Virus record (IMG/VR): IMGVR_UViG_3300042358_000005
Span: 54,935-118,934 of that record
Origin: a virus
Taxonomy: Duplodnaviria > Caudoviricetes
DNA length: 64,000 bases
Reading direction: 5' to 3' (one strand)
Shown: positions 9,669 through 33,044 of the stretch, piece after piece
Layout: every line of letters begins with the position of its first letter
How positions within the stretch are numbered: the first letter of the stretch is position 1
Notes under the pieces: model-generated
The model's input: only the letters and a program-made list of their open reading frames with translations
Told to the model about the DNA's origin: nothing
Database searches by the model: none
Translations under genes and position numbers: made by a program

Positions 9669-12600
9669 ATGAGTGTAATTTGTGCTGCTAATCCTTGCCC
9701 AATATTATTAAGTGCATCCTGTGTATTCTACGAAGGACCTAACTTAATATGTACTGGTATAAATACTAACGAAACCCTTGAATCTGCATTAAAGAAAATT
9801 AATGATAGACTGTGTTCAGGTGCTGGTGCTGATGGAACTAGTGGTACTTCTGGTACCAGTGGAACGTCAGGTACCTCAGGCACTAGTGGAACATCCGCAA
9901 CTTCAGGCACTTCTGGTACCACTGGTACTAGTGGTAGTTCTGGTACTAGTGGTAGTTCTGGAACCTCAGGAACTACTGGAACCAGTGGTACATCTGCTAC
10001 ATCTGGAACTGCTGGAACTTCAGGAGTGCAAGGTGATAGATATAGAACAGTCTCTACAGATTGTTTTACATTAGGTAACTCAGGAACACTTATTGTTGAT
10101 ATAGGATTGTCATACACTCCTGGTCAATCAATTGTTATTGCATACAATGCATTTAATTATCAAGAATCTGTTGTTTTAACATACAATCCTTTTACAGGAG
10201 ATTTAACTTTCACTGCCCCTACATTAGTAGTTGGTGCTGGAAACTATTGTATATGGGATATAAACCTAGATGGAGCAACAGGAGGAGATGGATCTTCTGG
10301 TACTAGTGGAACAAGTGCTACAGCTGGTACAAGCGGTACAACAGGAACTAGTGGTACAACAGGAACTAGTGGTTCTAGTGGAACTTCTGGAAGCTCAGGT
10401 ACATCGGGTACTAGTGGCACATCTGGTAGTTCTGGTACTACTGGAACTTCAGGAACAACAGGAACAAGTGGCTCTGCAGGATCAAGTGGGTCAAGTGGAT
10501 TAAATGGATCTTCTGGAGCTGCTATAGCTAACTGGTTTGCAAGTTATTCTGATAATGGGAATCAACCTATAATAGCTGCAAATACACCTACACCAGTTAC
10601 ATACAATACAACAGAAATAGCAAATGGTATTATTCTAGATGTTAGTCAACAGATTAGATATCCACATGCTAACATATATGAATTTGGATATTCTCTACAA
10701 GTAGAAAAAACTGGTGGCCCAAGTACAGATATAGAGATATGGATTAGAAAGAATGGTAATAACATTGTTAGAACAGATTCTTATTTAAGTATTACAGCTG
10801 ATGGTGTAATACAACTACCATATGTATCTTTTATATTAGAACTATTAGCTAATGATTATTTAGAAATTATATTTTCTTCTACAAGTCAATATGTTCAATT
10901 AACAGCTAAGGCTGCTAAAACTTCTCCATACGCTGCACCAGCAGCACCTTCTGTTATTGTTAATACAAAACAAATAGGTGTAGGTGTAGGTAGTACATCA
11001 GGAACCTCTGGTACTAGTGCCACATCAGGTACTACAGGAACATCAGGTACCTCTGCAACATCAGGTACGTCTGCTACAAGTGGAACTGCTGGAACTAGTG
11101 GAACCTCTGCAACAAGTGGTACTTCAGGTACATCAGGAACTAATGGTTCTGCAGGAACTTCTGGTACTTCTGGAACGTCAGGTACTAGTGGTAGCTCAGG
11201 AACATCAGGAGTAGATGGTACATCAGGTACAAGTGGAATAGATGGATCTAATGGTACGTCAGGTACATCTGGTACAAGCGGTAGTTCTGGATCTTCATCA
11301 ACTAGTGGTACTAGTGGAACAAGTGGAACTACAGGTACATCAGGAAGTTCTGGAAGCTCAGGAAGTTCTGGAACAAGTGGAACTAGCGGTACTAATGGAT
11401 CAGCTGGAACCTCTGGTACATCTGCTACTAGTGGGACTTCTGGTACATCGGGTACCAGTGGGACTTCTGGAACATCAGCCACAAGTGGAACTAGTGGTAC
11501 TAGTGCAACTAGTGGGTCTTCAGGAAGCTCTGGATCCTCTGCTACATCTGGTACATCTGGATATTCTGGAGATAAATATGCTACATCATCTACTACATGT
11601 TACACTATACAAGCACCTCCTGGTACAGGTACTATTACTGTTGATACAGGGCTTGCTTATACATTAGGACAAAGTATAATTATAACTTATTCAGGTGATG
11701 CTTTACAACACAATGAAGCTATCGTTACAGGATATGATCCATTAACTGGTATATTAAACTTTCAAGTGACTGGTCAAACTGGTTCAGGATTATATTGCTC
11801 ATGGTTTGTTAATTTAGATGGTGCAACAGGTGGTGATGGATCAAATGGTACATCAGGTTCTAGTGGTTCTTCAGCTACAAGTGGCACATCTGGAACAACA
11901 GGAACCTCAGGTACTACAGGTACATCAGGATCTAGTGGAACAACTGGTACATCTGGAACAACTGGTACGTCTGGTACGTCTGGTACTAGTGGTACTACAG
12001 GTAGTTCTGGATCATCAGGTATTGATGGTACATCAGGAACTACAGGTACATCTGGTACATCTGCTACTAATGGTACAGGTGGAACTAGTGGAACAAGTGG
12101 AAGCTCTGGTTCTTCTTCTACATCTGGTACATCAGGATCTTCTTCTACGTCTGGTTCTTCAGGTTCTAGTGGAACAAATGGAACAGGTGGAACATCAGGA
12201 TCTAGTGGATCTTCTGGTAGTAGCGCAACTTCAGGTACATCAGGTACATCAGCAATTAATGGAACAGATGGAACTTCTGGAACATCAGGGTCTAGTGGTA
12301 CAGCTGGTACATCTGGAAGTACAGGAACAAGCGGAACTTCAGGAAGTAGTGGTTCTAGTGCAACATCAGGAACATCAGGTACCACAGGTACGTCTGGTTC
12401 AAGTGGAATTAATGGTTCTAATGGAACCTCTGGAACCTCTGGAACCTCTGGTGCAAGTGGTTTAGGATATACAAATCCTGTTGCTGGTCCAACATCTGGA
12501 ACTTGGGTAACAGATTGTTCTTTAGTAGGAACAAATATTTCTTTTTATATATCTGGATCAGAATTAGGTGCATACACTGTAGGTAATTTTGTAAATCTAA

Positions 12601-15600
12601 TTGATACTACATCAGGTAGTACATTCTATTATTATGGTAGAATAACTTTAATACAATTTGCTGGAGGATTTGGATGGGCAATATATGTTGATGTATTAGA
12701 TTGTGGTGGGGTACCAGTTGGATCTCCATCAGGAAATTGGCAAATGCTACTTACAGGAACTGAAGGTTCTTCAGGATCTAGTGGTACATCTGGATCTAGT
12801 GGTACATCTGGAACTAGTGGTATTAATGGTACTAATGGAAGTTCAGGAACTAGTGGTACAACTGGAACATCAGGGTCATCAGGTATCAATATAGGTTCTA
12901 GTGCGGTTATTATATTAGGTGCTGGTGTATGTTCTTCTGTAAGAGATGGAGTTGGTAATACTTCTACTGGTGCGTTTAGTGCTTCTTTAGGAGGTCAAAA
13001 TAATAATGCAACTAATAGTTGTGCGACAATAGCTGGTGGATGTACAAATAATGCAACTGGTCAAGTATCAACAATTGGTGGTGGTCAAAATAACACTGCT
13101 TCTAATTATCAATCAACAGTTGGAGGTGGTAAATCTAACATTGCTTCTGGAGAAAAATCAACAGTTAGTGGTGGTCAATCTAACACTGCTAATGGTAATT
13201 TTGCAACAGTAAGTGGAGGTTTAAGTAATGTAAGTTCTTATGTAGGTACTGTTAGTGGAGGTGTTAACAACAATTCTAGTGCTTATTCTTCAACAATTGG
13301 GGGTGGTAAACAAAACACTGCTTCTGGAGATACATCAATAATAGCTGGTGGTGGTTGTAATACTGCTTCTGGTGGTCGTTCAACAATTGGTGGTGGTTAT
13401 CGAAATGTCGCTTGTAATATTTATTCAACAGTTGCTGGTGGTAATAGTAACTTTGCTTCTGGTAGTCGTTCATTTATTGGTGGTGGTTTTTCAAATACTG
13501 CTTCTAATAGTTATTCAACAATTACTGGTGGTAATGGTAATATTGCTTCTGGTATTCGTGCAACAATTGGTGGAGGACAAGAAAATTCTGCTTCTAATTC
13601 TTGTTCAACAGTCAGTGGTGGTCTTTTTAACATTGCTTCTGGTTTTAATTCATTTGTAGGTGGTGGTAAAGGAAATGTTGCTTCTAGTGATTGTTCAACA
13701 GTTAGTGGTGGTTATAAAAACTGTGCAACTCAGAATTATTCAACAATTGGAGGTGGTAGATATAATTTTATTTCAACTCGTTTGTCAACAATTGGTGGTG
13801 GATGTTCTAATAGATTAGCTGGTAATCATTGTTTTGGTACTATCGGTGGTGGATATTGTAATTTTGTAAAAGGACAATATGGTAGTTATAATAGTAAAGC
13901 ATCAACTATTAGTGGAGGAAGAAATAATTATACCTGTGGTTCATATATTAGCATTAGTGGTGGATTACGAAATTGTGCAACTGGTGCTTGTTCAACTATT
14001 GGTGGTGGTAAATGTAATGTTACAAGTTACGCTGGTTCAACAATAAGTGGTGGTTCTTATAATATTGCTTCTAATAGTTATTCAACAGTTGGAGGAGGAT
14101 ATTGTAACACTGCATCTGGTAATGATTCAATAGTAGGAGGTGGTAATAGTAATACTGCTTCTGCTTGTAGTTCAACAATTGGTGGTGGTCGTAGCAATAC
14201 TGCTACTAATTATTTTGCCACAATTGGTGGTGGTCAACAAAACATTGCTTCTGGTCTTTATTCAGCAGTTGGTGGAGGTCAAGCTAATACTGCTTCTGGT
14301 TCTCGTTCAACAATTGGTGGTGGTGTTGCTAACACTGCTTCTGGTTATCGTTCAACAATAGGGGGTGGTTATAGTAATACTGCTTCTGCTTATCATTCAA
14401 CAATTGGTGGGGGTAAAACTAATACTGCTTCTGGCATCCGTTCAACAGTTAGTGGTGGATATAGTAATATTGCTTATAATTTTAGTTCAACAGTTGGAGG
14501 TGGTCAATATAATAATGCTTCTGGTATAGGTTCAACAGTAAGTGGTGGCGGAGTGAATTATTATAATTTTAGTTATTATAGTGCTGGTAATAGTGCTTTT
14601 GGAAATTCTTCAACAATTGGCGGTGGTCTTTTTAATATTGCTTCTGGATGTAGTTCTTTTATTGGTGGTGGTTGTAGCAACACTGCTTCTGCTAATAGTT
14701 CAACAATAAGTGGTGGTCAAAGCAACACTTCTTCTAGTAATTTTTCAACAGTTGGTGGTGGTGTAATTAACACTGCTTCTAATCCTTATTCAACAGTTAG
14801 TGGTGGTTTACAAAACACTGCTTCTGGTAATTCTTCAACAGTAGGTGGTGGTAGAAATAATATTGCATCTGGTATTCAATCAGCAATTGGTGGGGGTTGT
14901 CAAAATACTGCTTCTGCAACTTATTCAACTGTTGGTGGTGGTAAATATAATACTAACAATAGTCAGTATTCTACAATTTCTGGTGGTTGTGGTAATATAA
15001 TTCCAAATACACAAAATAATAGAAACACTATTGGTGGTGGAGTTTGTAATGTAATGATAGCTAATACAAGTGGTGCTACAATTAGTGGTGGTAGAGCTAA
15101 TACTATAAGTAGTGGTAGTGGTAGTTGTTATATGACTATTAGTGGTGGTTGTTGTAATACTATTACTTCTGGTACTGCATCAACTATTGGAGGTGGGAAA
15201 TGTAATACTACTTCGGCTTTTAGTGCAACAGTTAGTGGTGGATATAGTAATACTGCTTCTGCTGGTCGTGCAACAGTTGGAGGTGGTAGTAATAATGTTG
15301 CTTCTGTTTATTGGGCAACAGTTGGAGGTGGTAATGCAAACAATGCTTGTGGTCAATCTTCAACAATAGGCGGTGGAACTTCTAATATTGCTTCTAGTAA
15401 TTATTCAATAGTTGGTGGTGGTTATTCTAATGATGCTACTAATTCTTTTGCAATAGTTGGTGGTGGTAATGCAAACACTGCTTCTGGTAGTCGTTCTACA
15501 ATAAGTGGTGGTCAATCAAATACTGCTTCTTCTTCTTATTCAACAATAGGAGGTGGTTTAAATAATATTGGTTCTGGTTGTTTCTCAACAATTAGTGGAG

Positions 15601-16568
15601 GTCAAGGCAATACTGCTTCTGGTACTCTTTCAAATACTGGAGGTGGTTTTTGCAACATTGCTTCTGGTAGTCTTTCAACAATTGGTGGTGGTCAATGTAA
15701 CAGAAATTGTTCTGACTATTCAATAATTGGCGGTGGTGTAAGTAATTGTACAGATTACGGATGTTTGAATACCATTAGTGGTGGTATGACAAATAGAATG
15801 ATTCATAATACCAATAGTATTATTGGGGGAGGTCAGAATAACTCAATTTGTGGAAATATTGCTAATTCTTCTTATACTCGTGGTAATTCTATTTTGGGAG
15901 GTTATAATAACGCTATAAACAATATAAGTTACGCTACGGAATCTCAAAATAATACAATAACTGGCGGAATATCCAATAGTATATTTGCATATAATTCTGC
16001 ATATACCTGTTCTAATTTTATTGGTGGTGGTAAGAGTAATGCAATTTGTTCTTCAAGTAGTGATAAAGCCAGTTATAATTCTATTATAGGTGGTAGAAGT
16101 AATAATATAACTGGTTTTTGTAACTCACATATTATTGGTAGTTACCTTTCTGTAACTGCCAATGACACAACATTTGTTCAAGCATTATCAAAAACAAGTG
16201 GTACGTTTAGAATTAAGCACCCAGAACCTATAAAAAACAAAACGCATTACTTACAACACTCGTTTGTTGAATCGCCTACTGCTGGAGATAATATTTATAG
16301 ATATGTTGTTAAAGTAGTAGATGGTGTTGCTGAAATTGAATTGCCAGAGTATTTCAAATTCCTAAATGAAAACACTCAAATTTGGGTAACGCCCAAAGAA
16401 GGTTTTGGAATTGCTTATGGAAAAGTAGATGAAAATTTAAAAAAAGTAACTATATTTGCTAACGAGGATTTAGAATATAACGTTCTTATCATAGGAACAA
16501 GAAAAGATAAAGATGCTATTGAAAATTGGAATGGTATTGAAATATTACAAAATAAAATAAATAAATAA
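9669..16568 (+). CDS. Giant repetitive fibre/spike protein: Gly-X-Y (GTS/GSS) tracts, C1q/BclA-like domain, 15-aa beta-helix repeats, C-terminal fibre domain
   Basis: 2299 aa with long (GTS)n runs, dozens of GGGxxNxASGxxSTI repeats and a C-terminal KTSGTFRIKHP...LQHSFVESP domain; lies in the virion gene block. Confidence 0.8.
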   Translation: MSVICAANPCPILLSASCVFYEGPNLICTGINTNETLESALKKINDRLCSGAGADGTSGTSGTSGTSGTSGTSGTSATSGTSGTTGTSGSSGTSGSSGTSGTTGTSGTSATSGTAGTSGVQGDRYRTVSTDCFTLGNSGTLIVDIGLSYTPGQSIVIAYNAFNYQESVVLTYNPFTGDLTFTAPTLVVGAGNYCIWDINLDGATGGDGSSGTSGTSATAGTSGTTGTSGTTGTSGSSGTSGSSGTSGTSGTSGSSGTTGTSGTTGTSGSAGSSGSSGLNGSSGAAIANWFASYSDNGNQPIIAANTPTPVTYNTTEIANGIILDVSQQIRYPHANIYEFGYSLQVEKTGGPSTDIEIWIRKNGNNIVRTDSYLSITADGVIQLPYVSFILELLANDYLEIIFSSTSQYVQLTAKAAKTSPYAAPAAPSVIVNTKQIGVGVGSTSGTSGTSATSGTTGTSGTSATSGTSATSGTAGTSGTSATSGTSGTSGTNGSAGTSGTSGTSGTSGSSGTSGVDGTSGTSGIDGSNGTSGTSGTSGSSGSSSTSGTSGTSGTTGTSGSSGSSGSSGTSGTSGTNGSAGTSGTSATSGTSGTSGTSGTSGTSATSGTSGTSATSGSSGSSGSSATSGTSGYSGDKYATSSTTCYTIQAPPGTGTITVDTGLAYTLGQSIIITYSGDALQHNEAIVTGYDPLTGILNFQVTGQTGSGLYCSWFVNLDGATGGDGSNGTSGSSGSSATSGTSGTTGTSGTTGTSGSSGTTGTSGTTGTSGTSGTSGTTGSSGSSGIDGTSGTTGTSGTSATNGTGGTSGTSGSSGSSSTSGTSGSSSTSGSSGSSGTNGTGGTSGSSGSSGSSATSGTSGTSAINGTDGTSGTSGSSGTAGTSGSTGTSGTSGSSGSSATSGTSGTTGTSGSSGINGSNGTSGTSGTSGASGLGYTNPVAGPTSGTWVTDCSLVGTNISFYISGSELGAYTVGNFVNLIDTTSGSTFYYYGRITLIQFAGGFGWAIYVDVLDCGGVPVGSPSGNWQMLLTGTEGSSGSSGTSGSSGTSGTSGINGTNGSSGTSGTTGTSGSSGINIGSSAVIILGAGVCSSVRDGVGNTSTGAFSASLGGQNNNATNSCATIAGGCTNNATGQVSTIGGGQNNTASNYQSTVGGGKSNIASGEKSTVSGGQSNTANGNFATVSGGLSNVSSYVGTVSGGVNNNSSAYSSTIGGGKQNTASGDTSIIAGGGCNTASGGRSTIGGGYRNVACNIYSTVAGGNSNFASGSRSFIGGGFSNTASNSYSTITGGNGNIASGIRATIGGGQENSASNSCSTVSGGLFNIASGFNSFVGGGKGNVASSDCSTVSGGYKNCATQNYSTIGGGRYNFISTRLSTIGGGCSNRLAGNHCFGTIGGGYCNFVKGQYGSYNSKASTISGGRNNYTCGSYISISGGLRNCATGACSTIGGGKCNVTSYAGSTISGGSYNIASNSYSTVGGGYCNTASGNDSIVGGGNSNTASACSSTIGGGRSNTATNYFATIGGGQQNIASGLYSAVGGGQANTASGSRSTIGGGVANTASGYRSTIGGGYSNTASAYHSTIGGGKTNTASGIRSTVSGGYSNIAYNFSSTVGGGQYNNASGIGSTVSGGGVNYYNFSYYSAGNSAFGNSSTIGGGLFNIASGCSSFIGGGCSNTASANSSTISGGQSNTSSSNFSTVGGGVINTASNPYSTVSGGLQNTASGNSSTVGGGRNNIASGIQSAIGGGCQNTASATYSTVGGGKYNTNNSQYSTISGGCGNIIPNTQNNRNTIGGGVCNVMIANTSGATISGGRANTISSGSGSCYMTISGGCCNTITSGTASTIGGGKCNTTSAFSATVSGGYSNTASAGRATVGGGSNNVASVYWATVGGGNANNACGQSSTIGGGTSNIASSNYSIVGGGYSNDATNSFAIVGGGNANTASGSRSTISGGQSNTASSSYSTIGGGLNNIGSGCFSTISGGQGNTASGTLSNTGGGFCNIASGSLSTIGGGQCNRNCSDYSIIGGGVSNCTDYGCLNTISGGMTNRMIHNTNSIIGGGQNNSICGNIANSSYTRGNSILGGYNNAINNISYATESQNNTITGGISNSIFAYNSAYTCSNFIGGGKSNAICSSSSDKASYNSIIGGRSNNITGFCNSHIIGSYLSVTANDTTFVQALSKTSGTFRIKHPEPIKNKTHYLQHSFVESPTAGDNIYRYVVKVVDGVAEIELPEYFKFLNENTQIWVTPKEGFGIAYGKVDENLKKVTIFANEDLEYNVLIIGTRKDKDAIENWNGIEILQNKINK
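9831..12890 (+). repeat. Gly-Thr-Ser / Gly-Ser-Ser triplet repeat tracts, interrupted by globular domains
   Basis: Degenerate 9-nt coding repeats (ggtacttct/ggaacatca etc.) with Gly at every third codon. Confidence 0.9.
12960..16140 (+). repeat. ~45-nt (15-aa) coding repeat, consensus GGGxxNxASGxxSTI
   Basis: tcaacaattggtggtggt...aatactgcttctggt units recur throughout the C-terminal half of the fibre. Confidence 0.9.
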
Positions 16569-16573
16569 ATAAA

Positions 16574-16900
16574 ATGGAAAATTTCACAATTCACATCTTC
16601 GGTTACGGAGAAACACAAATCAATTCAAAAGATTTGTCAGTAAAAGTATCAACTGATACATTAACAACAGTAACGCCTTTAGTGGCTGGAATATTTGCTA
16701 AAAAACCAGCAGATAATCCAACTGTAATTACAGACTTTCACGCTATTAACCTATTTGGTTATAACGATGTTCGTTGGACTGCAAAAGATAGCTTTAACGT
16801 AAAAGATGATGCTGACTTAAAACCACTTATCGATGCTTTAATTGCTGAATTGCAAAAAGCAAAAGACACAACTACTACCACAACTACAATATTGGTATAG
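16574..16900 (+). CDS. Small hypothetical protein with C-terminal poly-Thr tail
   Basis: 108 aa ending KDTTTTTTTILV; follows the fibre gene. Confidence 0.75.
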   Translation: MENFTIHIFGYGETQINSKDLSVKVSTDTLTTVTPLVAGIFAKKPADNPTVITDFHAINLFGYNDVRWTAKDSFNVKDDADLKPLIDALIAELQKAKDTTTTTTTILV

Positions 16901-16984: not shown

Positions 16985-17806
16985 ATGAAGAAAAGAATTT
17001 TATTTAACTCCTCTCTTCCTAGAGCAGGATCAACTCTTCTGCAAAATATTATTGCAGATAACCCAGACTTTCATTGTACACCTACATCAGGATTCTTAGA
17101 TCTTATATTAGGTGCAAAGCAAAGTTATAATAACTCATCAGAAGTAAAAGCACAAGATGCTGAACTAATGAAGAATGCTTTTGTAGGGTTTTGTCATAAT
17201 GCTATGGATGGATATTTTAATGCTCTAACAGATAAACCTATTGTCTTAGATAAGAATAGAGGTTGGGGAATACATATTAATCTAGCTAGTGAGTTCATGG
17301 TGTCTCCTAAAGTGGTATGTATGATTAGAGATGTAAGAGCTGTATATTCTTCTATGGAGAAAAACTTTCGTAAGAATCCTACACAAGAGAATCATGTTCA
17401 AAATCCTAATCAATTAGTAGGTACTACTCTTCAAAAGAGAATTAACATATGGGCTGATGGACCACCAGTAGGTATATCTATGGATAGACTAAAAGATGTA
17501 TTTGATCAGGGAATAGATAAGAAGATATTATTTATTCGTTATGAAGATTTAATGGACTTTCCTGAACAAGAGATGAGACGCTTCTATGAGTATATGGAAC
17601 TTCCATATTATGAAGGACACAACTTTGAAACTGTTACACAGCATACACATGAAAATGATGCTATACATGGAATATATGGTGATCATAAACTAAGAACAAA
17701 GTTTGAAAGAAAGCCTGATGATTTTGAAGAAATCTTAGGATTTGAAATATGTCAATCAATTAAAAACACTTATCCTTGGTTCTTTACCAAATTTGGATAC
17801 GTATAA
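16985..17806 (+). CDS. PAPS-dependent sulfotransferase (Sulfotransfer_3-like)
   Basis: 5'-PSB motif SSLPRAGSTLLQN, 3'-PB motif IRDVRAVYSS, and RYEDL. Confidence 0.9.
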   Translation: MKKRILFNSSLPRAGSTLLQNIIADNPDFHCTPTSGFLDLILGAKQSYNNSSEVKAQDAELMKNAFVGFCHNAMDGYFNALTDKPIVLDKNRGWGIHINLASEFMVSPKVVCMIRDVRAVYSSMEKNFRKNPTQENHVQNPNQLVGTTLQKRINIWADGPPVGISMDRLKDVFDQGIDKKILFIRYEDLMDFPEQEMRRFYEYMELPYYEGHNFETVTQHTHENDAIHGIYGDHKLRTKFERKPDDFEEILGFEICQSIKNTYPWFFTKFGYV

Positions 17807-17816
17807 ATCAACCAAT

Positions 17817-18686
17817 ATGAATATAATATTTGATATATCAGGAGGCTTAGGAAAGAATGTTCTTTCTACAGCTGTATTAAAAGCTATTAAGACTAAACAT
17901 CCTAAAGCAAACGTAATTGTTCTTACATCTTATCCAGATGTGTTTATTGGTAATCCAAATGTAAACAAGGTGATAGTTCATGGAACCACATTAGGTCTTT
18001 ATAAAGATTACATAATGGGTAAGGACACAAAGATTTTTATTACAGATCCTTATACATGCTCTGATTACTTAACAGAATCAAAACATCTAATTGAAATATG
18101 GTGTAAACTATGTGAGGTGCCATATAATAATGAATTACCTGAGCTTTTTATATCTAAAACAGAAATAGAATACTTTGCTCCATTCTATAAATTAGATAAA
18201 CCTATTCTTGCTATACAACCTAATGGTGGTCCTCAAGATCAACCATTAAAATATAGTTGGACAAGAGACATTCCTTCTCCAGTAATTAATGATGTAATAC
18301 AACATTACAAAAAGAAATATACAATTGTACACATTAAACGTGATGATCAACCAATCTACGATGATACAGTAGGAGCTCTTGATTCATTTAGAAGTATAGC
18401 TGTTCTATTATCATTATCAGAAAGAAGACTTCTTATTGATTCATCAGCTATGCATATTGCTATAGCTCTAGGACTTCCAAGTGTTGTATGTTGGATAGGA
18501 ACAAATTCAAAGGTGTTTGGATATGAAATGAATACTAATATAGATGCTAATGCTCCAGACAAAGAATTAAACTTAGATCATCCATATTTACAAAGACTTC
18601 CATTGTTTGAAGATATCTCTAGATGTCCATATACAGAACTAGGAAGTATATTCAATAGCGAAGACATAATTAAAGCATTGAAATAA
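17817..18686 (+). CDS. GT-B glycosyltransferase, GT9 (ADP-heptose transferase-like)
   Basis: GGLGKNV N-terminal loop and IDSSAMHIAIALG motif. Start reassigned to ATG 17817 to avoid a long overlap. Confidence 0.8.
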   Translation: MNIIFDISGGLGKNVLSTAVLKAIKTKHPKANVIVLTSYPDVFIGNPNVNKVIVHGTTLGLYKDYIMGKDTKIFITDPYTCSDYLTESKHLIEIWCKLCEVPYNNELPELFISKTEIEYFAPFYKLDKPILAIQPNGGPQDQPLKYSWTRDIPSPVINDVIQHYKKKYTIVHIKRDDQPIYDDTVGALDSFRSIAVLLSLSERRLLIDSSAMHIAIALGLPSVVCWIGTNSKVFGYEMNTNIDANAPDKELNLDHPYLQRLPLFEDISRCPYTELGSIFNSEDIIKALK

Positions 18687-19126
18687 TGGCAGTATATTGG
18701 TTTACAGGACAGCCTTCACATGGTAAAACAGTTTTGGCTAAATTGCTAAAAGAAGAACTACAGAAATACGATAGAGTTTTTCATATAGATGGTGATGATC
18801 TTAGAGCTCTTACATTAAACAAAGACTTCTCTGAACAAGGAAGAATAGATAATGTCAAAGGTGCACAAAAAATAGCACATTATTTACATAATAAAGATTA
18901 TACAGTGGTAGTTTCACTCATTGCTCCATATAGATGGCAGAGAGAAGAACTAAAAACTATGCTTGGTGCAGATCTTGTAGAACTATATGTTCATACAACA
19001 GAACCAAGAGAAAGAGATCATTTTAGTGTAAAAGATTATGAAGCTCCCTTAGAGAACTTTATAGATGTAGACACTACAGATGATACACCAGAAGAATCAT
19101 TTGCTAAAATTTTAAAACTAATATAA
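18686..19126 (+). CDS. cysC: Adenylylsulfate (APS) kinase
   Basis: VYWFTGQPSHGKT P-loop, IDGDDLR, FSEQGRIDNV, LIAPY and YEAP motifs. Confidence 0.9.
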   Translation: MAVYWFTGQPSHGKTVLAKLLKEELQKYDRVFHIDGDDLRALTLNKDFSEQGRIDNVKGAQKIAHYLHNKDYTVVVSLIAPYRWQREELKTMLGADLVELYVHTTEPRERDHFSVKDYEAPLENFIDVDTTDDTPEESFAKILKLI

Positions 19127-19557
19127 TGGGATGGAGTAAAAAAGTGCATGTAGAATCTTCTATGCAACCAAAAGATTCACAATATGCAATGTTTGTAGGA
19201 AGATGGCAACCTTTACATGAAGGTCATGTAAAACTTTTTCAACAAGCAGTATTAGAGGGTAAAAATCTTTTAATATGTGTAAGAGATGGAGAGGTTAATG
19301 ATAAAAACCCTTATACGTCAAAACAAGTAAAAAAAGCAATAAAGGGCATGAGTAAAAATTGGTGGACAGAGGATATTTTACCTTTAATAGATAAATTAAA
19401 ACCAAAAGTAAAAGTAATAATAATACCTGATATTTGCTCGGTTGAATTTGGAAGAGGTGTTGGTTATGATATAATAGAGCATATACCGCCTACAGAGATA
19501 GCAGAGATATCAGCTACAAAGGTTAGAGAACAAATGCGTAAAGATGGTGAGTTATGA
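19126..19557 (+). CDS. HIGH-class (cytidylyltransferase-like) nucleotidyltransferase; possible ATP sulfurylase
   Basis: GRWQPLHEGH and C-terminal ISATKVR motifs; translationally coupled to cysC. Confidence 0.8.
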   Translation: MGWSKKVHVESSMQPKDSQYAMFVGRWQPLHEGHVKLFQQAVLEGKNLLICVRDGEVNDKNPYTSKQVKKAIKGMSKNWWTEDILPLIDKLKPKVKVIIIPDICSVEFGRGVGYDIIEHIPPTEIAEISATKVREQMRKDGEL

Positions 19558-23385: not shown

Positions 23386-23706
23386 ATGGAAAACGCATTT
23401 GAACAACAAGTAGAAAAAGAATTAAAAAGCATGGATCAACGACTATATGATCTAGAGGAGAAGATGACTTCTATAGACACTAAACTAACACAAGTTGTAG
23501 ACGCTATCTTAGGTAATGCACTAACAAAAACAGGGGGATTTATTGCTGACTTAACTGAGCTAAAGGCCAAGATAAAAGATTTAGAAGATAAGATACAGAA
23601 ACAAGAAGAGTTCAAAAAGAAATTTACTTGGACCGTAGGTATCATATTAGGTATTGGTGTACTACTTCAATACCTATCTACACTTTATAGAAATATAACA
23701 ACATGA
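23386..23706 (+). CDS. Coiled-coil protein with C-terminal TM helix (holin/antiholin-like)
   Basis: Heptad-rich body, hydrophobic WTVGIILGIGVLL, and position in the lysis block. Confidence 0.55.
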   Translation: MENAFEQQVEKELKSMDQRLYDLEEKMTSIDTKLTQVVDAILGNALTKTGGFIADLTELKAKIKDLEDKIQKQEEFKKKFTWTVGIILGIGVLLQYLSTLYRNITT

Positions 23707-23906
23707 GTACAAAAGAGAAGGTTGATATTTTTTTAAACAAATGGGTAAGCAGAAAGCTTACAGTGTTTGCTGTAGGTTCTGTTGGCCTTTTCTCTGGAAA
23801 ATTAACATCATCTGATTGGGTTATAATTGCAGCAACATATATTGCTATTGAAGGAGCAACAACTATTGTAGAAAAATTAATGAAAGCTAGAGGAGGTATA
23901 TCATGA
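23703..23906 (+). CDS. Putative holin
   Basis: 67 aa, two hydrophobic segments, SRKL motif, coupled to the endolysin. Confidence 0.65.
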   Translation: MSTKEKVDIFLNKWVSRKLTVFAVGSVGLFSGKLTSSDWVIIAATYIAIEGATTIVEKLMKARGGIS

Positions 23907-24298
23907 TATTAGAACTTAAAAGAAAGATATTCACAGATGATTCCACAATAGGAGAAATATCTATTGATGGTGTATTTATATGTTATACATTAGAGGATAA
24001 AGTGAGAGAGACTAAGATAAAGAACATAACAGCTATCCCTTATGGAAAATATGAATTAGCAGTTACATTCTCTAATCGTTTTAAACAGTACATGCCTCTA
24101 TTACTTAATGTACCAGGATTTGAAGGTGTACGTATACACAGTGGTAATAAATCTACTGAAACAGAAGGATGTATTCTTGTAGGTGGTACTAGATCATTAA
24201 ACTTTATTGGCAAGTCTAGAGTGACATATAAAGCTTTATTTGATAAGATAAAGAGTGCAAAAAAAACAGAGAAGGTCTTTTTAAACATTACGCAATAA
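23903..24298 (+). CDS. Putative endolysin, DUF5675 (L,D-transpeptidase-like fold)
   Basis: STIGE...CYTLED...TAIPYGKY...IHSGN...TEGCILVG. Confidence 0.8.
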   Translation: MILELKRKIFTDDSTIGEISIDGVFICYTLEDKVRETKIKNITAIPYGKYELAVTFSNRFKQYMPLLLNVPGFEGVRIHSGNKSTETEGCILVGGTRSLNFIGKSRVTYKALFDKIKSAKKTEKVFLNITQ

Positions 24299-24612
24299 TG
24301 ATACAATATTTAAAAGATCAGTACTTGGCGGTGATCATCACCGTTATCTGGCTATTCTTTACACTACATACTCAACAAAAGACTGCTCTTCTATTAGAAC
24401 AAACTAAGAAATTAGAAGCTAAAATATTAGTTCTTGAAGAAAAAGATCATGAGTCTAGTATAATTATTGATAGCTTATCTAGAGTGGATACACTCATAGT
24501 TAATAGAATCAAAATCATCAAACAAAAAGAATATGTACAAATTAGGATTATTGATAGTTTGCCTGTTAGTGGGCTTCAAAAGTACTTCACAGATCGTTAC
24601 TCAGAAAAATGA
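24298..24612 (+). CDS. Putative inner-membrane spanin-like protein
   Basis: N-terminal TM segment plus coiled coil, immediately after the endolysin. Confidence 0.55.
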   Translation: MIQYLKDQYLAVIITVIWLFFTLHTQQKTALLLEQTKKLEAKILVLEEKDHESSIIIDSLSRVDTLIVNRIKIIKQKEYVQIRIIDSLPVSGLQKYFTDRYSEK

Positions 24613-25009
24613 TTCTATCGTTACCCTTAGTGAAACTGTTTCTAGGAAGGTTGTTTCTGATCTTGTACGTTATGATTTTGCTAAGAATATTATCAAAGAG
24701 CAAGAGATAAGAATAAAGAACTACCAGAACAAAGAGATTGAGTTTAAGAACAAACTAGATATAAAAGATTCCATCATATTCTATCAGAAGAGTATTATTG
24801 ATATTCATAAAGAGATTATCAAGAGTAAAAAACCTTTAGAGATACATGGATATGTAGGTGTACAATCAATTCAATTCAAATTGGTAGAACCTATATTATA
24901 TACAAACTTAATGTTTGAGTTTCCTAAGTTCAGTATAGGAGCTCAATACTACGTACAACCTAACAATCCTAGTGGATATGGGATTGTTCTAGAATATAAC
25001 TTATTTTAA
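24533..25009 (+). CDS. Putative outer-membrane spanin-like protein
   Basis: Signal peptide, coiled coil and C-terminal amphipathic beta strands ending in F; overlaps the previous gene. Confidence 0.5.
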   Translation: MYKLGLLIVCLLVGFKSTSQIVTQKNDSIVTLSETVSRKVVSDLVRYDFAKNIIKEQEIRIKNYQNKEIEFKNKLDIKDSIIFYQKSIIDIHKEIIKSKKPLEIHGYVGVQSIQFKLVEPILYTNLMFEFPKFSIGAQYYVQPNNPSGYGIVLEYNLF

Positions 25010-25404: not shown

Positions 25405-25572
25405 ATGGCAATACCATCAAGAGGAATAGGCTGGAGTACTACAGATAACCTATTATGGCAGATATCTAAGCAATTAGAACGTCTTATTAGTGTTACAGGT
25501 GCTGGAAACACGTACACTACAACTACTACTACTACTGTAGCACCTACTACCACTACCACTACAACAGTGTAA
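25405..25572 (+). CDS. 55-aa protein with mucin-like poly-Thr tail; absent from ORF track
   Basis: MAIPSRGIGWSTTDNLLWQISKQLERLISVTGAGNTYTTTTTTTVAPTTTTTTTV, preceded by a TATTTTTG element at 25371. Confidence 0.8.
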   Translation: MAIPSRGIGWSTTDNLLWQISKQLERLISVTGAGNTYTTTTTTTVAPTTTTTTTV

Positions 25573-25598
25573 AGAATTAAAACAAAACCAACTACATT

Positions 25599-26615
25599 AT
25601 GAAAGATTTAAAATTTATCCAGGCTTGTCCTAGTGATATTTATTACACATGGCAAGTGCACATGTGGTTAGAGAGCTTAAGAGAGATAGGTCATTCTGAC
25701 AAAGCTATATCAGTAATCTTCACTCCTAAAGGGAGAGAGAATAAAGACAAGTGGAAACAGATAGAAGATCTATATCCAGAAGCAGAGTTTCATTACTATG
25801 CTGATGAGGATAATTTAAATCGATTGTTAGGAATTTATATTCCTGTACTTAGACCATATGTTCTTTGGAAACATTTTAAAGCACATCCAGAACTAAGTGA
25901 AAAAGCTATCTTCTATTGTGACTCTGATATTCTTTTCATGAAGGATTTCAATCTAGATAAGTTCTTAGAAGATGATGTTAACTACTTATCTGATACAAAC
26001 AGCTATATCAATGCTAAATATTTTGATAGCAAGGTGCACCAAGTGTTACCAGAGAAGCTAGAAGAATATAAGAATAGGGATATCCTTGCAGAGATTGCAA
26101 GTGTGGTAGGAATAAGTAGAGAAGTGTGCGAAGCTAATAATGATCATTCAGGAGGAGCTCAATATCTATTAAAAAATGTAGATGGTGACTTCTGGAGTAA
26201 GGTGATGAATGATTGTATTCTTATAAGAAGTTATTTACAAACTGTGAATAGAGAATTCTTTAAAGATGAGAACTCAGGGTTTCAAAGTTGGTGTGCAGAT
26301 ATGTGGGCTGTCTTATGGAACATCTGGTTAAGAGATCAAGAAACAAAAGTGGTGCCTGAATTAGCATTTGCTTGGGCTACAGATCCTCTTATTAAATTAG
26401 ATACACATACAATCTTTCATAATGCAGGAATAGTTTCTGAGACAGGAAATGGATACCCAGCTTTCTACAAAGGAAAGTATCACATGGGAACTGATCCAAC
26501 AAAAGATCCTAACTTAGATATGATTCTTAATGATGAGAATTCAAAAAAATATTGCACATGGTTCTATGCAAATAAATTAAATGAACTAAAACAAAAACAT
26601 AACCTAAACTATTAA
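25599..26615 (+). CDS. GT-A glycosyltransferase resembling peptidyl-Ser galactosyltransferase / Hyp arabinosyltransferase (GT96/GT95-like)
   Basis: YYTWQ...YIPVLRPY...IFYCDSDILF (DxD)...GGAQY...SWCADMWA...FHNAG motif order. Confidence 0.6.
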   Translation: MKDLKFIQACPSDIYYTWQVHMWLESLREIGHSDKAISVIFTPKGRENKDKWKQIEDLYPEAEFHYYADEDNLNRLLGIYIPVLRPYVLWKHFKAHPELSEKAIFYCDSDILFMKDFNLDKFLEDDVNYLSDTNSYINAKYFDSKVHQVLPEKLEEYKNRDILAEIASVVGISREVCEANNDHSGGAQYLLKNVDGDFWSKVMNDCILIRSYLQTVNREFFKDENSGFQSWCADMWAVLWNIWLRDQETKVVPELAFAWATDPLIKLDTHTIFHNAGIVSETGNGYPAFYKGKYHMGTDPTKDPNLDMILNDENSKKYCTWFYANKLNELKQKHNLNY

Positions 26616-26631
26616 CCCTAAATTTTAAACA

Positions 26632-26838
26632 ATGGGAAGCATTAATTCAAGACCTTTAAAGGCTTTTGTTAGATTCGATGGATCTGGCAGAATAGTTGCA
26701 GGAAGTTTGATTCTAAGAAAGAACAAACCTAAAGTTGGTAAATGGAAAGAGATTCCAGCATATGAGTGCTGTAATCCTACAACCACTTCAACCACCACTG
26801 CTGTATTAACAACAACAACAACCACCTCACCTAGATAA
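26632..26838 (+). CDS. Small protein with poly-Thr tail (paralog 1)
   Basis: LKAFVRFDGSGR...KPKVGKWKEI..ECCN followed by PTTTSTTTAVLTTTTTTSPR. Confidence 0.8.
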   Translation: MGSINSRPLKAFVRFDGSGRIVAGSLILRKNKPKVGKWKEIPAYECCNPTTTSTTTAVLTTTTTTSPR

Positions 26839-26840
26839 TC

Positions 26841-27062
26841 ATGGCAAGAAGTAATAACAATAATAAGCTTAAAGCTTTTGTACGTTTTGATGGTTCAGGA
26901 CGTGTAGTATCAAGTAGTTTAATTGTACAAGCATTTAAACCGAAGGTTGGTAATTGGAAAGAAATAGATGCTAAGGAATGTTGTAATTATGTTCCAACAA
27001 CAACAACTACCACTACAGTAGCACCAACAACTACAACCACCACTACAGTTACTCCAGGGTAA
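26841..27062 (+). CDS. Small protein with poly-Thr tail (paralog 2)
   Basis: Same head domain as paralog 1, followed by PTTTTTTTVAPTTTTTTTVTPG. Confidence 0.8.
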   Translation: MARSNNNNKLKAFVRFDGSGRVVSSSLIVQAFKPKVGNWKEIDAKECCNYVPTTTTTTTVAPTTTTTTTVTPG

Positions 27063-27079: not shown

Positions 27080-27496
27080 ATGGCACTAAAATCACTATTT
27101 CCAGATGATATGATTAGCAAAGGGCCTAGTAGTGAGCTTTCATTAGATAGCATTGCTGCTAAGCTTACTTACTTTCATGAGCAACTACATTTGTTGCACT
27201 GGCAGACAAGCTCTTACGCAGAGCATATGGCACTAGGAGGATTGTACGATTATGTACATGATTTCAAAGATGGGTTGGTTGAGAAGATTATGGGATATAC
27301 AGGTAAAAGACCTGGAGCTTATAAGATAGAACCTCTTGGAGCAGCTAATGCTTCTTCTGTTGTTTCTGAGCTAATGAGCTTTGCTTCATCTCTAAAAGCA
27401 TATGGTGAGAAGAATAGCTTCCACGATGTATGTAATCTTGCAGACTCTCTATCAGGAGAAGCAGCTAAAACTAAATATCTTTTAACATTGTCATAA
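27080..27496 (+). CDS. Ferritin/Dps-like protein (DUF5856-like)
   Basis: QLHLLHWQT.SYAEH.ALG.LYD...D.LVE...KYLLTL. Confidence 0.75.
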   Translation: MALKSLFPDDMISKGPSSELSLDSIAAKLTYFHEQLHLLHWQTSSYAEHMALGGLYDYVHDFKDGLVEKIMGYTGKRPGAYKIEPLGAANASSVVSELMSFASSLKAYGEKNSFHDVCNLADSLSGEAAKTKYLLTLS

Positions 27497-27781: not shown

Positions 27782-29014
27782 ATGCCAACATTTATAAAAC
27801 CAGGATTCTGGAAAGAAACATGCAATCCTTGTAATGGTTACAAAGGATGGTTAAACCTTGATCAATTCTCTGGTCAATCAGGAACAAATGGAACAAGTGG
27901 TACTAGCGGTGTATCAGGTGAACAGGGTGTTCAAGGAATTCAAGGGATACAGGGAATACAGGGAATACAAGGAGTTACAGGTTCTAGTGGTACTAATGGT
28001 ACATCAGGACTAACTGGAGACAGATATCAAACTACATCTACAACAACTTTTGAATTAGGAGTGAGTACAACTCTTACTGTTGAAACAGGATTATCTTATT
28101 CAGTAGCACAAGATGTAATTATATCATTTAATGTTAATAATCATCAAGTGTGTTCTGTAGTTAGTTATGATCCTATAGTAGGGACATTGGTTATTGGACC
28201 TCCTATATCAGTAACTGGATCAGGTACATATAGTGTATGGGGAGTAAATCTAAATGGTGCAGCTGGAGGAGATGGTACAAACGGAACCTCTGGTACAAGT
28301 GGTCTTTCAGGATCTAATGGAACCAGTGGAACTAGTGGTATACAAGGAATACAAGGTGTACAAGGAATTCAAGGAATTCAAGGAGTTAATGGTACCAATG
28401 GTACTTCTGGCACTAGTGGATTAACTGGAACTAACGGAACATCTGGTATCAATGGTAGCAATGGTACAAGTGGATCTTCAGGAGTGAGTAATGCTACAGC
28501 ATCTTACGGTTTATTTGCTCAAACAGCTGATAGCACACCTGTAACTGCCACTGCAGTAGAAACAACAGTAATAGGATCAGGAGTTGGTACATTATCTGTT
28601 CCTGCAAATGCATTCTCTATTGGAGATTCTTTTCTTTGTTCTTTAGATGGTTTAATTTCTTGTACAAGTGCATCAACTGTACGCATTCGAGTAAAAACAG
28701 TAGGAGGAACACTTCTTGCAGATACTGGAATAATTGATTTGGCTGCTGCAACTAATAAAGCTTGGATAATGAACTTATATTTTACAGTAAGAACATTAGG
28801 AATAGCTACTGTTGCATCAATTTCATCTGGAGGATTGTTCTCTTATATTAGAAATGGGGGAACTCAATTTGAAGGATATAATTTAAGTACAGTTAATAGC
28901 ACTACATTTGATACCACTATTAACAATACATTAGTAATCACAGCACAGTGGGATACAGCTGATGTAGACAATTCAATATTGTCACGAAACTTCACACTAA
29001 CAAAAGTCTATTAA
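27782..29014 (+). CDS. Collagen-like fibre/decoration protein (GIQ and GTS triplets)
   Basis: Gly-X-Y tracts plus the GDRY...NLxGAxGGDG domain shared with the 2299-aa fibre. Confidence 0.75.
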   Translation: MPTFIKPGFWKETCNPCNGYKGWLNLDQFSGQSGTNGTSGTSGVSGEQGVQGIQGIQGIQGIQGVTGSSGTNGTSGLTGDRYQTTSTTTFELGVSTTLTVETGLSYSVAQDVIISFNVNNHQVCSVVSYDPIVGTLVIGPPISVTGSGTYSVWGVNLNGAAGGDGTNGTSGTSGLSGSNGTSGTSGIQGIQGVQGIQGIQGVNGTNGTSGTSGLTGTNGTSGINGSNGTSGSSGVSNATASYGLFAQTADSTPVTATAVETTVIGSGVGTLSVPANAFSIGDSFLCSLDGLISCTSASTVRIRVKTVGGTLLADTGIIDLAAATNKAWIMNLYFTVRTLGIATVASISSGGLFSYIRNGGTQFEGYNLSTVNSTTFDTTINNTLVITAQWDTADVDNSILSRNFTLTKVY

Positions 29015-31335: not shown

Positions 31336-31363
31336 AGAAAGCCCCTTAATTGGGGCTTTTTTT
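31336..31363. terminator. Bidirectional terminator at the convergence of the two genome arms
   Basis: AAAGCCCC-TTAATT-GGGGCTTT with flanking A and T runs; the coding strand switches here. Confidence 0.9.
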
Positions 31364-32012
31364 ATCTAACTGTGTATTGATTTGAGTAAACATTACCTTC
31401 TAATAACTTGTATCTTGTACCAAACTTATGTAATAGATATGGAAGACTGAGTTGATCTTGAACAGACCATATGCAATTGTGATAGAACCACTCTTTCATT
31501 AAATTGTATTGTCTGTTAGCTATAACATTCTTAGAATATATGAATGTTCCACATTCAAAAAGAACATTATCTATCCAGTGTACATTTTTAGAATAGTGCT
31601 CTACTTGCTCTTTCATTCTTTCTCCATCATACCTATCAATAAGATATTGATTATCTGTAGCAATTAAACTAATGACATGGTCTAGCTCTTGTTTAACAGA
31701 ACTTCTTCCTGAATGTTTAAAGAAACATGCATCTGTGTCAATACATACATCTACCATTCTCTCTATAGCTGATTCATCTGATATTGAAAAACCAGCATCC
31801 ATCCATATGTAATAGTCATAACTTGGATGATCTTCCCAAACTATCATTTTAGGTATTTTACCACGTAATCTGGGAAACATAGCTTTTTGTCTTGGAGATT
31901 CTATTTGATCATCTATTCTATTAAATACTATTTCATACTTATCAGATTTTTGATCTACCCATCTAGAATATAATCCACTTCCAAATGAAGCTGTTGTTAC
32001 TAATACTCTCAT
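31362..32012 (-). CDS. Glycosyltransferase, DUF616/TOD1-MUCI70-like
   Basis: YIWMDA...FKHSGR...SVQDQLSLPYLL. Confidence 0.7.
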   Translation of the reverse strand: MRVLVTTASFGSGLYSRWVDQKSDKYEIVFNRIDDQIESPRQKAMFPRLRGKIPKMIVWEDHPSYDYYIWMDAGFSISDESAIERMVDVCIDTDACFFKHSGRSSVKQELDHVISLIATDNQYLIDRYDGERMKEQVEHYSKNVHWIDNVLFECGTFIYSKNVIANRQYNLMKEWFYHNCIWSVQDQLSLPYLLHKFGTRYKLLEGNVYSNQYTVR

Positions 32013-32761
32013 TGTTTATTTATAAAATCTTTTAACATTTGCGCATAGTCTTTGTTCCAATGAGGATTCAAATGAACATCTCCTGTAGGGATAAGATTTT
32101 TTTGTCTTAAGCTTTCTATATATTCACTATGTCTTTGTATTATGTTAGGCTTATCTGCAGTGTCTGTACCTTGTCCAGATTGATGATAACCACGTCCACC
32201 CCACATATAGAACCAAGAACATTCTTCATTAGGAGGAGCAGCTAAAACCATTCCTTGTCTTCCTAGATTCTGTAGAGATATAGCTAATGTCATATCTCCT
32301 CCAGCATTCTGTATTGGACTTTTACCTATTTTTTCCCAAGCTTTCTTGCTATATACAATACCTGAATTACCAAGGCCCATTATTTTGGTTATATTAGGTT
32401 CATTATAGAACACACCTCTTTCCCAATGTAATATATTAGCATCAGGTCTCCAAAACTTAGCTATGTTAGAGAGGTGATTGCTTAGTGCTACATCATCATC
32501 ATCCCATACAGCAATAAGATCTCCAGAACAATGCTCTATAGCATAGTTTTCTTTATCCCCAATTGTAGGGAATGTTTCATCCATATTATAAATTTTTATT
32601 TCTGGATGATCATATACTAACTTTTGTAGAGGGTAGTCATTAACTATAATAAGTTCTTTCTTACCTGGATACTCTTGTAGGAGGAAACTTTGTATAGCTT
32701 CCTCCAGAGTATCTACTCTTCCATAAGTGATGCATTTGCAACTAATGAAAGGATATTCCAT
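32009..32761 (-). CDS. GT2-family glycosyltransferase
   Basis: ISCKCITYGR...SFLLQEY...ELIIVND...WDDDD; start reassigned to MEYPF. Confidence 0.85.
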   Translation of the reverse strand: MEYPFISCKCITYGRVDTLEEAIQSFLLQEYPGKKELIIVNDYPLQKLVYDHPEIKIYNMDETFPTIGDKENYAIEHCSGDLIAVWDDDDVALSNHLSNIAKFWRPDANILHWERGVFYNEPNITKIMGLGNSGIVYSKKAWEKIGKSPIQNAGGDMTLAISLQNLGRQGMVLAAPPNEECSWFYMWGGRGYHQSGQGTDTADKPNIIQRHSEYIESLRQKNLIPTGDVHLNPHWNKDYAQMLKDFINKQ

Positions 32762-32762
32762 A

Positions 32763-33044
32763 TTACCAGATTTGAATAATGTCAAATGGAGAAACTAACA
32801 ATACAGTTTCTTCTTCTGATAGAGGGATTAATGGAGCTTTTGATAAAGCTGCTGGATCTACAAGAACAAAATCACCCACCTTCACTTCCATGTTAGCTGT
32901 ACCAACACTATGAACTTTAAGTTTGTTCATCTTCTTCAACATTTCTTTCTCTAAAGATTCTTTTGTATTCTCATCTACGATAAGTTTGCTTTCTTCTTTC
33001 TTTGGTATCTCTAAGTAGATACGGTTTCCTAATAATCTTGCCAT
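32763..33044 (-). CDS. groES: GroES-like co-chaperonin
   Basis: LLGNRIYL...VHSVG...VKVGDFVLV...DII pattern; 93 aa. Confidence 0.65.
   Translation of the reverse strand: MARLLGNRIYLEIPKKEESKLIVDENTKESLEKEMLKKMNKLKVHSVGTANMEVKVGDFVLVDPAALSKAPLIPLSEEETVLLVSPFDIIQIW

Follow-up and report, generated by a model that had tools for sequence, protein, structure and literature searches.

A phage GT-A glycosyltransferase family associated with poly-threonine tracts on small modular and predicted virion proteins

To our knowledge, glycosylation of phage virions has been measured only for a few mycobacteriophages, in which it alters antibody recognition. In Che8, Rita and other mycobacteriophages, capsid and tail-tube subunits bear glycans at their C-termini (Freeman et al. 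2023, Cell Host Microbe 31:1216, as relayed in part by PMC12619734 and PMC11256854). As far as these sources extend, phage-encoded glycosyltransferases (GTs) modify acceptor tracts at the C-termini of virion proteins in the cytoplasm, and the glycans have been proposed to act as a shield. Two cellular systems are also comparable. The serine-rich repeat proteins of Gram-positive bacteria are O-glycosylated in the cytoplasm on tracts rich in hydroxy-amino acids by GTs encoded beside the substrate gene (GtfA/B, Gtf3, GlyD/GlyE), with GT8-type enzymes involved, and the plant GT95 enzymes (Pfam PF23452, HPAT) O-glycosylate runs of hydroxy-amino acids in peptides. Here we describe a four-gene cassette at positions 25405-27062 of a 64,000-nucleotide stretch of phage DNA (the window), in which the gene for a 338-residue GT is surrounded by three genes for small proteins with threonine-rich tails. 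Comparative analysis suggests that the cassette encodes an enzyme together with its own acceptors.

The window comprises bases 54935-118934 of a 118,934-bp IMG/VR virus record (IMGVR_UViG_3300042358_000005) that is rated complete and originates from lake-water metagenomes; the host of this 119-kb phage is likely to belong to the Bacteroidota. The four open reading frames (ORFs) of the cassette are tightly packed on the plus strand, with intergenic gaps of 26, 16, and 2 bp (Table 1). The regions upstream of them are A-rich and contain no Shine-Dalgarno sequence, as is usual in Bacteroidota. A preliminary description of the stretch, made from the DNA letters, had reported the 338-residue GT to be flanked by a 55-residue ORF and two tandem paralogs, all of them Thr-tailed, and this is the arrangement observed. 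Its statement that two of the tails are alike despite unrelated heads is likewise correct: the 55- and 73-residue ORFs both carry the sequence T7-VAP-T7-V. The tail of the 68-residue ORF reads T3-S-T3-AVL-T6-SPR. The heads of the 68- and 73-residue proteins are paralogous, sharing 32 identical residues over approximately 48, and that of the 55-residue protein is unrelated to either.

Runs of this length are far from the chance expectation, which is approximately 0.0004 T7 runs over all long ORFs of the genome (Thr content 7.4%); runs of at least five Thr residues are present in 10 ORFs, and most of these runs are T7. The T7-VAP-T7 stretches of the 55- and 73-residue ORFs are identical at 41 of 51 nucleotides, all 10 differences are synonymous, and both use a mixture of Thr codons (ACT, ACA, and ACC). 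Purely synonymous differences combined with mixed codons indicate that the protein sequence of the tail is under selection. The same two features rule out an origin of the tails as a slippage microsatellite or as a recent DNA copy.

The association between this GT and poly-Thr proteins extends well beyond the present locus. Across 80 related IMG/VR loci, in which the GT is 65-91% identical, a poly-Thr ORF lies within 500 bp of the GT in 67 and on both sides of it in 41. Poly-Thr ORFs number 1.75 per kb in the 500 bp nearest the GT and at most 0.03 per kb at distances over 2 kb. The association was also recovered in the reverse direction, starting from 49 IMG/VR records picked solely for DNA encoding T7-[AV]-AP-T4 and 49 controls picked by an unrelated pattern. 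The GT family is present in 22 of the tag-picked records and in none of the controls; when only records at least 90% complete are considered, it is present in seven of eight and none of eight, respectively. Clustering of 20 of the positive GTs yields 16 groups at 70% identity and 6 at 50%, and the genomes that encode them measure 33-274 kb. The co-occurrence of poly-Thr ORFs with this GT across phage genomes, proposed as a check in the preliminary description, is thus seen from either starting point.

A tblastn search identified GT homologues at approximately 30% identity in 77 cultured phage records, the hosts being Enterococcus, Lactobacillus, Staphylococcus, Lactococcus, Clostridium, Arcanobacterium, and Chryseobacterium, with the Chryseobacterium phage MA9V-3 among the carriers. 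In the Enterococcus phage phiFL1A, the GT directly follows the major tail protein, and the major tail and major head proteins are both poly-Thr-tailed; in the Lactobacillus phage Semele, the GT comes after two poly-Thr proteins. Annotation was read for all of the Lactobacillus phage iLp84 and for the first 50 kb of the Lactococcus phage 1706 and the Clostridium phage phiCTP1. In each of the three the GT adjoins a poly-Thr-tailed protein, and in the stretches read such tails are confined to capsid, tail-tube, portal, and small head-region proteins and one holin (1706), with no second GT annotated. Taken together, the related loci, the reverse search, and the cultured phages give very strong backing, comparative rather than biochemical, to the preliminary suggestion of an enzyme paired with a portable tag. 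Homologues at 27-41% identity were also observed in assemblies of Chitinophaga, Sphingobacterium, Mucilaginibacter, and related Bacteroidota, both isolates and metagenome-assembled genomes, mostly without nearby poly-Thr ORFs; they may belong to prophages or be cellular paralogs that act on other acceptors. The 15 homologue loci taken from such assemblies all belong to Bacteroidota (Cytophagales, Chitinophagaceae, Sphingobacteriaceae, and Saprospiraceae), which fits the likely host range.

The poly-Thr ORFs around the GT in the related loci sort into two families according to their heads. The U-head, of approximately 35 residues, is found upstream of the GT and includes the 55-residue ORF, and the D-head, of approximately 47 residues with a Cys pair at its end, is found downstream and includes the 68- and 73-residue ORFs. 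Behind either head comes poly-Thr, at which the protein may end, as in stubs of 44-90 residues, or after which it may continue into a variable C-terminal domain, as in proteins of 117-512 residues. Poly-Thr is thus both a tail and a linker, and the heads are not arbitrary sequences but two conserved N-terminal modules. Purifying selection acts on both of them, with a ratio of nonsynonymous to synonymous polymorphism (pN/pS) of approximately 0.29 and pS near saturation (82 and 40 distinct sequences), and synonymous variation is also present inside the tails. The small ORFs are therefore real genes, and this pN/pS ratio rules out that they are non-coding or decayed fragments. From these comparisons, the three small ORFs of the cassette appear to be minimal, head-plus-tag members of families built from a head, a linker, and an optional distal domain. 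Such modules vary from one close relative to the next, making the surroundings of the GT a hot spot of variation.

The 338-residue protein has no Pfam match at E ≤ 1, Glyco_transf_8 included, but aligns over its full length with phrog_4417, a family without annotated function (E 1.8e-55; residues 4-320 on profile positions 1-286 of 293). It has approximately 2,700 relatives in a 90%-clustered protein database, which reduce to 769 cluster representatives at 50% identity. The motifs listed in the preliminary description (YYTWQ, RPY, DSD, GG, and WCADMWA) are all found in the protein, and its identification as a glycosyltransferase is borne out by a confident GT-A model and an invariant DSD motif. 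Two alignments were used, A1 with 61 and A2 with 63 family representatives. The DSD motif (D108-S-D110) directly follows the strand formed by residues 103-107 and is invariant in both; D108, D110, Y80, Y136, Q229, H274, and K291 are invariant in A1. In retaining GT8 enzymes a C-terminal His acts as the third metal ligand and a Gln or Asp lies near the anomeric carbon; possible counterparts here are among H274, Q229/Q188, and K291, which are invariant or nearly so by sequence alignment.

The AlphaFold model derived from A1 (predicted local distance difference test, pLDDT, 96.9; predicted template modelling score, pTM, 0.93) displays a GT-A fold according to Foldseek and an exhaustive VIA-align search of solved structures. 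Among solved structures it most resembles retaining enzymes of GT8 type and others related to them, with GT24/GT6-type enzymes also among the best. The closest are glycogenin (score 14.3), Skp1 alpha-galactosyltransferase (14.1), LgtC (13.9), the UGGT catalytic domain (13.3), WbbM (13.1), GlyE (12.6), LARGE1 (12.4), and the capsid-glycosylating A64R of PBCV-1 (11.0). The viral structure library BFVD gave high scores only for members of the family itself, including Lactobacillus phage LP65 Orf49, followed by giant-virus GT8-like enzymes. Searches of PDB sequences with the protein and with its profile returned noise only. With no Pfam or PDB sequence match, the protein does not belong to CAZy GT8 by sequence, and the likeness is structural only. 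Compared with the GT8-type enzymes glycogenin, LgtC, GlyE, and Skp1 alpha-galactosyltransferase, and with the GT24 enzyme UGGT, it is approximately 10% identical, lacks a Glyco_transf_8 match, is approximately 80 residues longer, and has family-specific insertions and motifs (YYTWQ and WCADMW) as well as a presumed poly-Thr acceptor. The model thus describes a GT-A enzyme that is GT8-like among solved structures but forms a family of its own, and by analogy with its nearest neighbors it would be expected to be retaining.

Neither the GT nor the small proteins contain a predicted transmembrane segment or signal peptide, and the GT, lacking any hydrophobic segment, should therefore act in the cytoplasm. 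Longer family members are fused to GT2, GT6, GT7C, GT29, GT32-like, methyltransferase, or radical-SAM domains, which fits an enzyme working within multi-step glycan synthesis. One such fusion was seen in a jumbo phage (a 274-kb IMG/VR record), where the GT domain occupies 252629-253570 within a 671-residue frame and the T7-x-AP-T4 pattern is also present. A BLASTP comparison of the GT with the 1137-residue multi-GT protein encoded upstream revealed no paralogy.

The preliminary description had labeled the enzyme a plant-type GT95/GT96 peptide O-glycosyltransferase, and this label is not upheld. The Pfam HPAT model PF23452 (gathering score 23.9 bits) misses the 338-residue protein in both protein and six-frame searches, and the best structures are of GT8/GT24/GT6 type. 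Scanning the 61 A1 representatives to E ≤ 1 gave two sub-threshold matches (best E 0.012), scanning the 63 A2 representatives to E ≤ 0.01 gave none, and ten bacterial homologues gave none at E ≤ 0.1, so that no above-threshold match exists among 124 family representatives. Nor was an HPAT match found in 404 Bacteroidota genomes. GT95 is predicted to be GT-A-like and GT96 to adopt a novel fold (PMC8476585); the latter would not fit a GT-A model. GT95 enzymes are furthermore Golgi type-II membrane proteins that act on hydroxyproline. In favor of a relationship are a similar order of motifs, the GT-A-like prediction for GT95, and the ESM-Atlas, in which 22 of 30 named neighbors lie in clusters where 10-58% of members carry PF23452, a lead rather than a test. 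A distant kinship to GT95 is possible; membership in the plant and algal peptide O-glycosyltransferase families GT95 (HPAT) or GT96 (SGT1), or a direct relationship to them, is very improbable. The broader concern raised at the outset, that the closest structural match might be a family without peptide activity, does not apply, because glycogenin, Skp1 galactosyltransferase, GlyE, and PBCV-1 A64R act on proteins or protein-linked glycans.

As in virion O-glycosylation of the mycobacteriophage type, a phage GT is accompanied here by Ser/Thr-rich tracts on proteins that, from their module position, would be located in the virion. The differences from the mycobacteriophages are nevertheless considerable. 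The hosts are Bacteroidota and, for cultured carriers, Firmicutes; the enzyme appears to belong to another family, with no mycobacteriophage GT among the best BFVD matches; and the tag consists almost purely of Thr, often laid out as T7-x-AP-T7. In this phage it is found, on present evidence from sequence, on small modular and fibre-like proteins rather than on the major head protein. The serine-rich repeat system is bacterial, depends on accessory Sec export and a GT-B initiating pair, and modifies tracts of hundreds of residues, whereas the system described here is viral, has tags of 7-20 residues, and involves no export. No description of poly-Thr or Thr-rich tags paired with phage glycosyltransferases outside actinobacteriophages was found in the literature, the coverage of which was partial and makes this weak evidence of novelty.

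The likely function of the GT, in our view, is to attach O-linked sugars to poly-Thr tracts on virion-associated proteins. This would happen in the cytoplasm, ahead of assembly or in its course, and the glycan would then be lengthened by other enzymes. The GT would be a soluble, metal-dependent (DxD) GT-A enzyme of the phage-specific family phrog_4417 that, late in infection, moves a sugar from a nucleotide-sugar to the hydroxyls of poly-Thr tracts (T5-T9, often T7-x-AP-T7). Candidate acceptors in this phage are the three small flanking proteins, a 108-residue protein also encoded in the window, and at least six virion-module proteins encoded outside it. Docking to the particle is probably the task of the conserved N-terminal head. 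Poly-Thr follows it as linker or tail, and relatives may add a distal domain that varies; the three stubs, reduced to head and tag, would do little more than carry a glycan brush. The small proteins may decorate the capsid, as the preliminary description supposed. Nearby GTs, a methyltransferase, and a sulfotransferase with APS kinase may extend and decorate the glycan. The fold, the DxD motif, the order of the genes, selection on the small ORFs, and the linkage of the family with poly-Thr tracts were observed directly. What we infer is which acceptor and donor sugar the enzyme uses, where in the virion the U-head and D-head proteins are placed, and a role as shield, hydration brush, or in adhesion. 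Phages with this GT family probably sugar-coat their particles. It is interesting to speculate further that one widespread GT-A family of phages recognizes, regardless of context, a minimal "glyco-tag" that can be added to any virion protein, producing a mucin-like coat in phages of both Bacteroidota and Firmicutes. In this more tentative extension, which we regard as possible but somewhat doubtful, the GT sits in a hypervariable cassette site that recombines docking heads, tags, and distal domains, and the stubs are mini-mucins for the display of glycans that are possibly methylated or sulfated.

Several observations weigh against O-glycosylation of poly-Thr tracts by this enzyme. The acceptor is deduced from co-occurrence alone for the whole GT family, and the GT8-type relatives include LgtC, which acts on lipo-oligosaccharide, and GlyE, which extends existing glycans. 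Poly-Thr ORFs are absent within 6 kb in 9 of the 15 homologue loci from Bacteroidota genome assemblies, and part of the family may accordingly modify something else. A natural contrast is provided by an IMG/VR record of 94.9 kb, 96% complete, in which the T7-[AV]-AP-T4 pattern is present but nothing matches the GT family; the tag of that phage would be served by a different enzyme or carry no glycan. The major head protein of the present phage (genome 16751-18313) is untagged, unlike those of Firmicutes phages. Lastly, phages sharing the tag may be kin, so that record counts overstate the number of independent events, though the GTs concerned form six deep clusters.

Some of these points would also be accounted for if the GT acted on a non-protein acceptor, such as host envelope polysaccharide or lipopolysaccharide, capsule, or phage DNA, with poly-Thr tracts serving as plain, flexible, hydrophilic linkers that bear no sugar and are of a kind common in Bacteroidota-associated proteins, and their proximity to the GT reflecting a shared variable late-gene region. 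LgtC and WbbM, an O-antigen enzyme, are close structural relatives, the fusion partners are typical of polysaccharide synthesis, poly-Thr in relatives is often an interdomain linker rather than a tail, and nine of the 15 Bacteroidota loci lack nearby poly-Thr ORFs. We nevertheless judge a non-protein acceptor unlikely. Of the 49 records picked by the tag, 22 hold the GT family, compared with none of the 49 controls, and poly-Thr ORF density drops approximately 60-fold or more with distance from the GT. In small Firmicutes siphophages, moreover, the GT lies inside the head-tail module beside tagged capsid or tail-tube genes, and the enzyme is soluble, with no membrane anchor. A role in DNA glycosylation finds no support, since no thymidylate-synthase-type hydroxymethylase was found in the genome by a search whose controls worked. 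It is also conceivable that the tracts are O-glycosylated but that the GT8-like enzyme is an extender, the first sugar being added by the GT4-type domain of the 1137-residue protein or by a host enzyme, in the manner of GtfA/B followed by GlyE/GlyD. This appears quite unlikely, given that the homologue is the only annotated GT in tag-carrying iLp84 (whole genome) and in the first 50 kb of 1706 and phiCTP1, which suggests that the family can initiate, and that glycogenin, the top structural match, glycosylates a protein hydroxyl directly.

If O-glycosylation of poly-Thr tracts by this family is correct, glycosylated particles would be widespread among phages that infect lake Bacteroidota, lactic-acid bacteria, enterococci, staphylococci, and clostridia, and a function would be assigned to a large "hypothetical" phage family, the approximately 2,700 relatives noted above. 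It would also provide a very short, genetically encodable O-glycosylation tag read by a single soluble enzyme, with uses in phage engineering and glyco-display. Phage therapy and the biology of dairy phages would be affected as well, by way of immune recognition, adsorption, and stability.

Table 1. Cassette genes and glycan-related or tagged features in the window (window coordinates)
Feature	Position	Strand	Remarks
GT-A fold glycosyltransferase (GT), 338 aa, phrog_4417 family	25599..26615	+	Family profile match, fold model, DSD = D108/D110
U-head stub, 55 aa	25405..25572	+	Conserved N-terminal head of ~35 aa, then T7-VAP-T7-V tail; candidate acceptor
D-head stub 1, 68 aa	26632..26838	+	Conserved head of ~47 aa ending in Cys pair, Thr/Ser-rich tail; candidate acceptor
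D-head stub 2, 73 aa	26841..27062	+	Tandem paralog of stub 1, T7-VAP-T7-VTPG tail; candidate acceptor
Poly-Thr-tailed late protein, 108 aa, ends D-T7-ILV	16574..16900	+	Tail kept in relatives, ~8.3-8.8 kb upstream of GT
Fusion of methyltransferase, GT1/GT4-type, and GT9-type domains, 1137 aa	19774..23187	-	Probable further glycan-building enzyme, from context
Sulfotransferase	16985..17806	+	Possible glycan sulfation, from context
APS kinase	18686..19126	+	Possible activated-sulfate supply, from context
Cytidylyltransferase-like nucleotidyltransferase	19126..19557	+	Possible activated-sulfate supply, from context
TOD1/MUCI70-like GT-like protein	31362..32012	-	Putative, from context
GT2 glycosyltransferase	32009..32785	-	Putative, from context

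The ORFs with at least five consecutive Thr residues comprise, within the window, the three flanking ORFs and the 108-residue protein and, outside it, six virion-module proteins. Some of the tagged proteins match PHROG families of "virion structural protein", and their virion location is judged from module position and, for some, from these matches. One of those outside the window is a 388-residue protein (genome 20389-21555), 2 kb downstream of the major head protein. It has 3543 relatives, the top 120 of which are 83-97% identical, and a bipartite poly-Thr tail is present in 117 of these 120 homologues. Its AF2 model is of low confidence (pLDDT 37.7), and a tblastn search against cultured phages gave no match. 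It is not the major capsid protein, that role belonging to the major head protein encoded at genome 16751-18313, and PF25650 did not bear out a weak Atlas lead (score 0.86) to a crAss auxiliary capsid protein. Four consecutive Cys-rich proteins of 424, 735, 322, and 161 residues are encoded at genome 22323-28467 and consist of short modules between T5-T8 linkers; a single protein can hold as many as eight T7 linkers. None of the four matches a family, and they may be fibre or decoration proteins with multiple glyco-linkers.

Within the window, a sulfotransferase, a 314-residue ORF, APS kinase, and a nucleotidyltransferase-like gene stand in a row at 16985-19557, an arrangement suggesting that the phage provides its own activated sulfate and sulfates some acceptor, possibly the virion glycan. 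Between the large GT fusion and the cassette is a run of small membrane-like ORFs (23386-25009), including a DUF5675 protein (E 2e-33) at 23903-24298; this run may be a lysis or accessory module. Directly 3′ of the cassette, a DUF5856/phrog_858 "starvation-inducible" Dps/ferritin-like protein is encoded at 27080-27496. The GT and small ORFs are covered by contigs from four RNA-library runs, mostly 85-95% identical and thus from relatives; these were not counted as evidence of expression, DNA carry-over being possible and contigs being unable to reveal transcripts. Two tail-fibre-like proteins with collagen (G-x-y) repeats are also encoded, one of 2299 residues at 9669-16568 and one of 410 residues at 27782-29014, just downstream of the cassette.

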